DNA of 64,000 bases from NCBI RefSeq assembly GCF_988243305.1, contig NZ_OZ547136.1; one strand, 5' to 3'. Every line of letters starts with the position of its first letter. Within the stretch, counting starts at the first letter, position 1. Positions 3,001-6,000 of the stretch are shown here, piece after piece. The position numbers were made by a program.

Positions 3001-6000
3001 CTATTTATACCTCGCCAACATATTCAGCGAGTAAGCCTTCCAGCGTTACCGGTGGTGTTGTTTATACGATGTATAGCTCACATCAGAAACCTACACCATC
3101 AGATATTGGAGCGCTGCCAACGACTGGAGGGACTATTTCAGGTCCGTTGTCTGTTACTGATGGGATCACCGGGGCACTGAAGGGGAACGCCGATACCGCG
3201 ACGAAACTTGCGGCAGTCCCAAAAATTAACGGTGTTAAGTTTGATGGCTCGGCGGATATTAACCTCACGCCGGAAAATATTGGTGCATTTGCCCGACGTT
3301 CGACGGGGGCTTATGCGGATTCGGATGGAGCCGTTCCCTGGAATGCCGAATCAGGCGCTTACAATGTCACCCGCTCTGGCGACAGCTATATTCTGGTTAA
3401 CTTCTATACCGGAGTCGGAAGTTGCCGGACCCTGCAGATGAAGGCGCATTACAGAAATCGTGGTCTGTTCTACCGTTCTTCAAGAGACGGTTATGGTTTT
3501 GAGGAAGACTGGGCAGAAGTTTATACCTCGAAAAATCTTCCACCAGAAAGCTACCCAGTCGGCGCACCAATCCCGTGGCCATCAGATACCGTTCCGTCTG
3601 GTTATGCCCTGATGCAGGGGCAGACTTTTGACAAATCTGCTTACCCGAAACTTGCAGCTGCTTATCCGTCAGGCGTGATCCCTGATATGCGTGGCTGGAC
3701 GATTAAGGGCAAACCTGCCAGTGGTCGAGCCGTATTATCTCAGGAACAGGACGGCATTAAATCGCACACCCACAGCGCCAGTGCATCCAGTACGGATTTG
3801 GGGACGAAAACCACGTCGTCGTTTGATTATGGTACTAAGTCTTCAAATGCCACTGGTGACCATAACCACAGCCGAGGCACTATGGAAATTACCGGTACTC
3901 TCGGTTACTTCAGAAGTGATAGCGGTAATTTCTATACAGCAAGTGGAGCATTTACACTGGGTGGCTCTGCGCCAGCCCATGGATTTACGGGCTCTCAATT
4001 TACTTATGGTGTTCCTGTAAACTTTAACGCTTCCAGAACCTGGTCTGGTGCCACAAGCACTACAGGTAACCATGCGCACTCTGTTCCAATTGGTGCTCAT
4101 GCGCACTCCGTTGCGATTGGTTCACATGGACACACCATCACCGTTAACGCTGCTGGTAACGCGGAAAACACCGTCAAAAACATCGCATTTAACTATATTG
4201 TGAGGCTTGCATAATGGCATTCAGAATGAGTGAACAAGCACGGACCATAAAAATTTATAATCTGCTGGCCGGAACTAATGAATTTATTGGTGAAGGTGAC
4301 GCATATATTCCGCCTCATACAGGTCTGCCAGCAAACAGTACCGATATTGCACCACCAGATATTCCTGCTGGCTTTGTGGCTGTTTTCAACAGTGATGAGT
4401 CATCGTGGCATCTCTTTGAAGACCATCGGGGTAAAACGGTTTATGACGTAGCGTCAGGGGACGAGTTATTTATTTCTGAACTCGGTCCGTTACCGGAAAA
4501 TGTTACCTGGTTATCGCCGGAAGGGGAGTTTCAGAAGTGGAACGGCACAGCCTGGGTGAAGGATACGGAAGCAGAAAAACTGTTCCGGATCCGGGAGGCG
4601 GAAGAAACAAAAAACAACCTGATGCAGGTAGCCAGTGAGCATATTGCGCCGCTTCAGGATGCTGCAGATCTGGAAATTGCAACGGAGGAAGAAACCTCAT
4701 TGCTGGAAGCCTGGAAAAAGTATCGGGTATTGCTGAACCGTGTTGATACATCAACAGCACCTGATATTGAGTGGCCTGCAAATCCTGTCAGGGAGTAATC
4801 ATTGGTATTATGCCGCAGCACGTCTTAAGCAAGAACGTGCTGCGGTTGGATGCTATTTTTTCCCTGAAGCGGAAAACATTACTACAGTACCTTGAACCTT
4901 GGTTTTAACATTCTCGAAATGCTCTGAGAGTATATGTGTTAAGCCTTCTTCGGAATCTTTTGTGTTTGAAAAGATGCCTTTCTGATTGTAAATGCGCATC
5001 AGTTTTTGACCGAAGCTATTGTGCACAACTCCATCGCCAAGAATTGTGGCTCCGTATAGAGTTCCATCGTCAGTTAAGGCCTGCGCCGCATTGCGTATTA
5101 CACAGCTTTTTGTAGATATATTTCCAGGCAGGCAGTGAAGAAGGTAAAACATGGAAATGGAATCAAATTGACCATGTAACGCCGCGGGATAAGGTTCAAA
5201 AACATCATGGCTAATTTTATGTTTAATTTTTGATTCCCCAGCCCTTGTAGATGCCGCGTTCAGGCTAGCTTCGTTCAAATCCATTAAAGATATCAGACTA
5301 CTCTCAGGTACGTGAGTAAGGTAAAACCCAGTTCCAACACCAATATCCAGATGGTTGTTACCTACATGTTCCAGAAAGTGTGGAAGAAGGTGTTCCTTTG
5401 TAGGACATCCCCATGCAAGCCGATTTGATACTCCCAAAACCCACCAGTCATAAAGCTTTAGGGTAAGTGGTGTGTAAATTTTAGCCCCATCATCTGTGTT
5501 TTTTTTCATTGATTTCACCATGTTATAGTTTTATTTGTGAATTAAATCAATTATGGCGATGAATTACAAGGGGTTAAATGCTGCCGCAGCATAGCGATAT
5601 TGAAATAGCCTGGTATGCTTCGATACAGCAGGAGCCGAATGGCTGGAAGACCGTCACCACACAGTTCTACATCCAGGAATTCAGTGAGTATATTGCGCCA
5701 CTGCAGGATGCTGTAGATCTGGAAATCGCAACGGAGGAAGAAAGATCGTTGCTGGAGGCATGGAATAAATATCGGGTATTGTTGAATCGTGTTGATACAT
5801 CAACTGCACCTGATATTGAGTGGCCTGCAAATCCTGTCAGGGAGTAATCATTGGGATTATGCCGCAGACACGTCGTATGCAGGAACGTGCTGCGGTTAGT
5901 TTGTGAGCTTTCGATAGTGGTTGTTATTTTTGCCCTTATTTGTTCCGGAGGCCATGGTTCAATGGTCCGTCTGCCCCCTGTGGTGATGTCAGCAAAATCA

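Follow-up and report, generated by a model that had tools for sequence, protein, structure and literature searches.

In a 64,000-nucleotide stretch of contig NZ_OZ547136.1 (NCBI RefSeq assembly GCF_988243305.1; hereafter the window), a methyltransferase gene lies at the end of the tail-fibre locus of an Escherichia coli lambdoid prophage, on the strand opposite to the lom, stf and tfa genes. By alignment, it is an intact allele of ybcY, known from the DLP12 prophage of E. coli K-12. We favour reading it as prophage cargo (a moron) that is transcribed independently and encodes a cytoplasmic methyltransferase acting on a small molecule, most probably at oxygen. The gene is already known, being annotated as a class I S-adenosylmethionine (SAM)-dependent methyltransferase in thousands of genomes and as the pseudogene ybcY in K-12. 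What is added here comprises the boundaries and flanking repeats of the cassette, the K-12 defect, the prevalence of the gene, its purifying selection, its probable start codon and a link to fungal O-methyltransferases. Reading an already annotated gene correctly does not amount to a discovery, and a methyltransferase moron will not surprise a specialist.

The gene, its relation to ybcY and its transcription

The open reading frame (ORF) was called at window positions 4853 to 5521 on the minus strand, with an ATG start, 222 codons and a TAG stop at 4855-4853. A preliminary description, made from the sequence alone, had reported this 222-residue reverse-strand ORF opposite lom-stf-tfa together with its motif I, LDIGVGTGF (residues 58-66), and all of this was confirmed. 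The range of 4848-5683 given there corresponds to the segment between two tfa-derived direct repeats. Its claim of AT-rich codon usage also stood: the ORF has a GC content of 0.41 and a third-position GC content (GC3) of 0.356, against GC3 values of 0.43-0.60 in lom, stf, tfa, trpA and trpB. The upstream region, also described as AT-rich, is only modestly so (149-nt spacer, GC 0.42). The ORF is not a chance reading frame, because its product matched Pfam Methyltransf_12 (E = 6e-9) and four sister families as well as PHROG 2132 (E = 4e-157; a group that itself has no assigned function), was 100% identical to a protein cluster of 6589 member sequences (P0002), and showed a ratio of nonsynonymous to synonymous substitution rates (dN/dS) of 0.11-0.22.

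The true start is probably the second ATG, at window position 5509 (residue M5), which would give a product of 218 residues. This start is probable because M5 is almost invariant in an alignment of 82 family sequences, diverged homologues begin at M5, RefSeq calls the copy of strain CFT073 in the 218-residue form, and the promoter mapped in K-12 directly abuts the first ATG.

The preliminary description had pointed to a likeness to the tfaD-ybcY-tfaX arrangement of DLP12, and this proved to be actual identity. Window positions 4360-5824 aligned with the K-12 DLP12 region tfaD'-ybcY-tfaX'-appY-ompT at 96.6% identity, both tfa fragments included, and the methyltransferase ORF was 99.0% identical in nucleotides to ybcY (b0562). 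A three-way alignment of the window, K-12 and phage ev243 traced the K-12 defect to a deletion of 2 nt; with it the second ATG is lost and the reading frame shifted, and ybcY is therefore annotated as a pseudogene. Apart from this deletion, about six substitutions separate the two genes.

Few prophage cargo genes are as widespread in E. coli as this one. At a nucleotide identity of at least 95%, it was present in 3831 of 5426 complete E. coli genomes (71%), at 4875 places, with up to four copies per genome and nine places on plasmids. Most of the 2-kb tfa-methyltransferase-tfa' arrangement was carried by 1109 genomes. The gene was also found in 15 phage records, all of Escherichia phages (ev243, 2G7b and the PhiR series among them); the full-length protein was encoded at 98-100% identity in 14 of these and a short fragment in one. 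The unit common to the window, DLP12 and ev243 extends over at least 4678-5802 and consists of the methyltransferase gene with a tfa 3' fragment on either side. This module of about 1.1 kb occurs in different prophages and free phages.

The gene and its candidate promoters are located as follows.

4853-5521, minus strand: ybcY-type methyltransferase ORF, 222 amino acids from the ATG at 5521 or 218 from the ATG at 5509
5522-5550, minus strand: sigma-70 promoter, TTGATT (5550-5545), 17-nt spacer, TATAAC (5527-5522), assigned in K-12 by genomic systematic evolution of ligands by exponential enrichment (Genomic SELEX)
5550-5577, minus strand: second promoter-like site, TTAACC, 16-nt spacer, CATAAT, a consensus match of a kind no commoner in the region than in shuffled sequences

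Probably, the gene is transcribed against the late genes from a sigma-70 promoter of its own and is open to silencing by H-NS. In K-12, the ybcY-tfaX spacer was bound in vitro by the RpoD holoenzyme, the ybcY promoter was assigned as TTGATT-17-TATAAC, and the spacer was also flagged as an H-NS site (Shimada et al., PMC3946193). The promoter hexamers aligned identically in the window, K-12 and ev243. Transcription of the gene alone from this promoter, against the late operon, would place its expression, or its silencing by H-NS, in the lysogen and not in the lytic phase. By analogy, an opposed promoter of this kind with H-NS silencing would be typical of morons. The second promoter-like site, if used, would place a Shine-Dalgarno-like GGTGA (5519-5515) on the mRNA before the second ATG.

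Protein class, relatives and proposed reaction

The protein is a class I (Rossmann-fold) SAM-dependent methyltransferase, for which SAM binding and methyl transfer are predicted. It is soluble and single-domain, of about 24 kDa with an isoelectric point (pI) near 7; neither a transmembrane segment nor an extra domain was found in its sequence (maximum Kyte-Doolittle value 0.95), and by this composition it does not resemble a nucleic-acid enzyme. Its Pfam matches included Methyltransf_12, 23, 25 and 11. The AlphaFold (AF2) model, with the 82-sequence alignment as input, had a predicted local distance difference test (pLDDT) value of 93 and a predicted template modelling (TM) score of 0.89. In it, the Rossmann methyltransferase core is joined by a lid of two N-terminal helices (18-36 and 41-52) and by a C-terminal insert (about 160-190). 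The features of the class were all found: the seven-stranded α/β fold with methyltransferase profile matches, the glycine-rich GxGxG loop after strand 1, in which G61, G63 and G65 are invariant or near-invariant, and an acidic residue at the end of strand 2. The latter is D81 (LMDLN; predicted strand 76-81), invariant in the 82 sequences, which from its position in the fold would bind the ribose of SAM. The Pfam matches, the model and a motif scan together upheld the preliminary assignment to class I without DNA-methyltransferase motifs; no (D/N/S)PP(Y/F/W) motif was present in the protein.

An exhaustive HMMER search placed the protein in a family of 1326 representative clusters at E ≤ 1e-3, 197 of them at E ≤ 1e-30, conserved over the full length. 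Residues Y24, H57, G65, D81, S121, H129, G157 and D189 were invariant in the 82-sequence alignment, and Y16, D25, W37, C39, N83, C130, K138 and N186 were nearly so. The conserved residues were kept in fungal (Atractiella and Endocarpon), actinobacterial and acidobacterial members. The names of 30 distant cluster representatives were generic only, and some of these were fungal. A Foldseek search of AFDB50 returned many fungal proteins at 37-47% identity, and its matches included Penicillium VerB, a protein named after VrtF, a putative O-methyltransferase of Cladonia and cyanobacterial VatX. The link to VerB rests on one row of this search, with 37% identity over 225 columns, a TM score of 0.88 and E = 8e-25. 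Two fungal family members (P0141 and P0147) were 50% and 43% identical to the window protein and kept the invariant residues, and other fungal proteins reached 47-51%. VerB and DovB have been shown experimentally to O-methylate an α-pyrone hydroxyl, and AurB, CtvB and AstB, which are 38-50% identical to DovB, perform the same O-methylation of the α-pyrone 4-hydroxyl (PMC12312803). In sequence identity, the distance between the E. coli protein and VerB appears similar to that between VerB and its functional analogues.

Matches among solved structures were mostly small-molecule or lipid methyltransferases (BH2331, DhpI, a PmtA-type enzyme, BelI, Coq5, RebM, TmtA and Rv0560c), with a few tRNA enzymes; no DNA methyltransferase was among the top structural or sequence matches. 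The profile search of PDB sequences gave a best E value of 1e-6 (XrdM and BelI), over the SAM-binding core only. The structure search called for in the preliminary description thus assigned no subfamily from solved structures. In NCBIfam, CpaM, RquA and PmtA scored 13-18 bits, all below their cut-offs of 162-390. The host-interaction or anti-defence role that the preliminary description had raised is a conjecture, and no PADLOC defence model was matched (best mad2, E = 0.009, 12.9 bits).

We consider it likely that the protein is a small-molecule or lipid methyltransferase. In the mechanism that we propose, SAM would be held by GVGTG of motif I, by D81 at the end of strand 2 and by D120/S121 on strand 4. 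The acceptor would lie under the N-terminal two-helix lid (Y16, Y24, D25, W37 and C39) and the C-terminal insert (Y178, N186 and D189). The invariant H129, just after strand 4, would be the base that deprotonates an acidic hydroxyl of the small molecule, yielding a methyl ether. This chemistry would parallel the 4-hydroxyl O-methylation of α-pyrones by VerB/DovB, AurB, CtvB and AstB. The benefit to the lysogen would be the modification or detoxification of an encountered metabolite and not the modification of DNA. That the E. coli protein O-methylates an enol or phenol is a tentative proposal by analogy, which we hold somewhat short of probable.

A bolder proposal, which we regard as unlikely, is that the enzyme is a resistance or interference factor that inactivates, by O-methylation, an acidic enol or phenol natural product met in the gut or environment. 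Candidate substrates would be 4-hydroxy-pyrone, 4-hydroxy-coumarin, 2-alkyl-4-quinolone and tetramic-acid antibiotics or signals of competitors, fungi or plants. If this were true, lambdoid phages would be spreading a detoxification trait through about 70% of E. coli by tfa recombination; in Salmonella, Enterobacter and Yersinia this trait would be chromosomal. A true link to fungal pyrone O-methyltransferases would supply concrete candidate substrates and make this lysogenic-conversion gene testable. The dead copy in K-12 probably explains why the gene has received so little study.

The genomic contexts of the homologues varied. In Enterobacterales other than E. coli the family is mainly chromosomal, with solitary homologues in unrelated non-prophage settings in Enterobacter (65% identity), Salmonella (56%) and Yersinia (56%). 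The Citrobacter braakii copy, 68% identical, adjoins torS and lies with sodC, a tail-gene fragment and dinI in a prophage remnant. No recurring neighbour was found among the loci of Salmonella, Enterobacter, Yersinia, Citrobacter, an acidobacterium, a marine lineage and two other mobile contexts, so the substrate is not readable from context. At the loci examined, no polyketide synthase lay near the gene or its homologues, the neighbours being tail-fibre or unrelated chromosomal genes. Because a biosynthetic partner is missing, the same substrate as that of the fungal enzymes is not expected.

We also noted an 84%-identical copy in a non-prophage island of E. coli GCA_039781515.1 (locus 2115-9353), in a phenolic-compound context. 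Its neighbours encode a tannase/feruloyl-esterase family protein, a TetR regulator, a caffeoyl-CoA-type O-methyltransferase and an esterase. This single occurrence might hint at the substrate class. An esterase link between this island and the hydrolase of ev243, a protein with Pfam Abhydrolase_1 and TAP-like domains, was dropped since the two hydrolases are unrelated (BLASTP E = 0.89).

Several points weigh against the reading of an independently transcribed small-molecule O-methyltransferase. The structural matches were flat, the closest solved structures having 13-21% identity, and 37% identity to VerB fixes neither the substrate nor the target atom. Family members in natural-product clusters are named both O- and N-methyltransferases. 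The assignment of H129 as a putative catalytic base comes from its fold position and invariance. Around the enterobacterial homologues, neither a conserved neighbour nor any polyketide gene was found. The data on promoter use and H-NS binding are in vitro results for K-12 and not for the window strain. The terminator hairpin between tfa and the gene lacks a U-run on the minus strand, so the methyltransferase transcript may not end there. Finally, our literature search found no functional study of ybcY or of any bacterial family member, and no in-vivo expression or phenotype data for the gene.

Among the alternatives, a macromolecule methyltransferase acting on rRNA, tRNA or protein might affect translation, susceptibility to antibiotics or some protein of the host or a phage, as in counter-defence or superinfection. 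We think this quite unlikely. The structural matches to such enzymes were no better than those to dozens of small-molecule enzymes, and small-molecule O-methyltransferases are its closest sequence relatives of known function. A bare catalytic domain of 218 residues, the protein has a near-neutral pI and carries no RNA- or protein-binding extension. The best PADLOC hit stayed at the 12.9 bits given above, and the chromosomal homologues in Salmonella, Enterobacter and Yersinia do not lie beside translation or defence genes.

A lipid methyltransferase that changes the envelope of the lysogen, either a PmtA-like phospholipid N-methyltransferase or a fatty-acid O-methyltransferase, seemed more doubtful still. 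PmtA (NCBIfam NF045882) scored 15.7 bits against a curated cut-off of 390, and such matches spanned only the generic Rossmann core (residues ~50-170). The low hydropathy maximum already noted leaves the protein with no amphipathic or membrane segment. E. coli is not known to make phosphatidylcholine, which counts against a lipid substrate for a gene carried by 70% of its genomes.

The gene might instead be an inert passenger, a decaying remnant hitch-hiking between tfa repeats with no function for phage or host. The pseudogene state of the K-12 copy would fit this, and H-NS binding suggests silencing. Deletion of ybcY in K-12 gave no significantly different growth response to Hha overexpression (PMC2408971), in a strain whose allele was already frameshifted, and ybcY lies inside a 6.8-kb deletion of an ethanol-evolved line (PMC4559166). 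Against this view, comparison of the window gene with mobile copies 79-90% identical to it, from Citrobacter, Salmonella and another E. coli island, gave the low dN/dS cited above at dS values of 0.2-1.0 (Nei-Gojobori method). The predominant allele, represented by the identical cluster with its 6589 sequences, is intact, and the active-site residues are invariant. In the DLP12-type element of CFT073 at argU, the integrase and tfa are only fragments, while the methyltransferase gene (218 residues) and the adjoining ompT are intact. The low dN/dS and the intact copy in this decayed prophage indicate that the gene is functional, and we give the passenger explanation little chance. The window gene proved to be neither a degraded pseudogene nor a housekeeping methyltransferase of known function, the two outcomes against which the preliminary description had set its reading.

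An orphan DNA methyltransferase shielding phage or host DNA from restriction is effectively refuted: although such enzymes are frequent in phages and one of the 82 family members had a marginal D12-class match (E = 0.006), the protein of only 218 residues lacks any DPPY/NPPY-type motif, cytosine-C5 PC motif (P.C) or target-recognition domain, its top matches were free of DNA methyltransferases, and its homologues abound in fungal natural-product clusters.

Position between tfa repeats and neighbouring features

The small-molecule methyltransferase gene that we propose is bracketed by two direct repeats of about 226 bp, 90% identical and spaced by 1049-1050 nt. The surrounding features are these.

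52-267: 3' end of the lambda-type J gene, with which the window starts
335-934, plus strand: lom
1086-4214, plus strand: stf, side tail fibre, 1042 amino acids
4214-4798, plus strand: tfa, full-length tail fibre assembly gene, 194 amino acids, with its last ~60 codons inside the left direct repeat
4622-4847, plus strand: left direct repeat (tfa 3' end and terminator hairpin)
4812-4846: GC-rich hairpin CCGCAGCACGT...ACGTGCTGCGG, the tfa terminator, between the convergent tfa and methyltransferase genes, followed by a T-run on the plus strand
5578-5847, plus strand: truncated tfa' ORF of 89 amino acids, equivalent to K-12 tfaX, divergent from the methyltransferase gene and annotated by RefSeq as a partial tfa pseudogene
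5671-5897, plus strand: right direct repeat, belonging to the truncated tfa'

Homologous recombination in the flanking repeats could transfer the cassette from one lambdoid prophage to another or remove it. The hairpin at 4812-4846 has a folding free energy of -30.6 kcal/mol (z score -5.0) on the plus strand and -24.3 kcal/mol (z score -4.2) on the minus strand. The cargo junction lies at about 4848/4849, directly after this terminator. In the cargo-free tfa of E. coli TUM3755, homology to the window stops at 4849, and an AAA-family ATPase and McrC, a McrBC-like restriction pair, directly follow tfa at the same junction (locus coordinates 3460-5672). The differing content after 4849 therefore marks the junction as a cargo site that is filled differently among prophages, which agrees with the preliminary view of the gene as opposite-strand cargo at the end of the tail-fibre locus. 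The TUM3755 case also presents the post-tfa site as a cargo hotspot able to hold defence genes. A remnant of an invertible segment of the Mu G or P1 C type was considered and rejected, the tfa pieces being direct and not inverted, with no adjacent invertase gene in the window.

Other cargo found beside the methyltransferase gene comprised ompT and appY in DLP12, an α/β hydrolase and ompT in ev243, manganese catalase with yciEFG-like genes in O157 and sodC in Citrobacter. In the prophage of O157:H7 ATCC 43888 (locus 1790-4003), a second yciG/yciF/yciE-like set and the manganese catalase lie between tfa and the methyltransferase gene. This set represents a stress-operon copy carried by a prophage, and the chromosomal yciEFG genes of the window adjoin its own prophage attachment site. 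In ev243 (locus 5639-9509), the methyltransferase gene lies between the tail fibre gene, which is followed by ORFs of 92 and 97 residues, and a tfa-like ORF of 101 residues. There is no full-length tfa before the methyltransferase gene in ev243, and the short tfa' there may be the working assembly chaperone.

The window prophage is integrated in ompW and adjoins yciE-yciF-yciG and trpABCDE, and a nearly identical arrangement (99.7% identity) was found in E. coli JE86-ST05. Between tfa' and yciE, at 5944-6561 on the plus strand as mapped from the annotation, the junction of prophage and chromosome inside ompW is marked by the final ~41 codons of ompW and by a further tfa-like fragment (DUF4376) that is degraded and contains an internal stop. 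Roughly residues 110-470 of the stf product (1042 residues; 1086-4214, plus strand) consist of Ala/Ser/Thr-rich low-complexity repeats, and the reverse strand of this region contains long spurious ORFs. The window stf is 294 nt longer than that of JE86-ST05, a difference that points to expansion or contraction of the repeats in the fibre shaft.

Two further annotations fall on the tfa sequences. Rfam IS009 (RF02111), a candidate phage-associated small RNA, matched at 4557-4755 on the plus strand with 224.5 bits (gathering score 117), and again at 5601-5804 on the plus strand with 112.5 bits, just under the gathering score. The model falls within tfa coding sequence, so the 'sRNA' may simply be the tfa or tfaX transcript, and the second match indicates that weaker tfa homology reaches to the left of the repeat boundary at 5671. 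A 51-codon ORF at 4740-4895 on the plus strand runs from the tfa 3' end through the hairpin and overlaps the methyltransferase stop on the opposite strand. Its K-12 counterpart is named 'nucleocapsid protein' in RefSeq and 'hypothetical protein' elsewhere, and it looks like a spurious call.

Comparison with known systems

The closest comparison is with ybcY of DLP12, which is the same gene in the same module and orientation, with the same promoter hexamers and flanking tfa fragments. The copies differ in that the K-12 gene is a frameshifted pseudogene, whereas the window gene is intact. DLP12 lies at argU, while the window prophage lies in ompW and is apparently a more complete lambdoid prophage, of which only J-lom-stf-tfa falls in the window.

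The gene also resembles the morons or lysogenic-conversion genes that lie by the tail-fibre genes of lambdoid phages (lom, bor, sodC, ompT and type III secretion system effector loci). It shares with them its deviant composition, its proposed independent transcription and its place beside a terminator where the late operon ends, and other cargo occupies the same or adjacent positions. The classic morons, however, encode surface or secreted proteins of known role, whereas the window gene encodes a cytoplasmic enzyme with no known phenotype.

Among solved structures, BH2331 (1vl5), DhpI (3ou2), a PmtA-type enzyme (8ys9), BelI (9fce) and XrdM (8rdl) share only the SAM-binding core with the protein, at 13-18% identity. 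They lack the conserved lid and C-terminal motifs of the family and so give no substrate assignment. VerB/DovB, AurB, CtvB and AstB, of the verrucosidin, aurovertin, citreoviridin and asteltoxin pathways, belong to the same family, are of the same size and are homologous over the full length, and the lid and active-site residues are common to the fungal members and the E. coli protein. The genes of the fungal enzymes belong to polyketide synthase clusters, and the substrate of each enzyme is the pyrone-polyene that its cluster produces, whereas the E. coli gene stands alone in a prophage with no biosynthetic partner.

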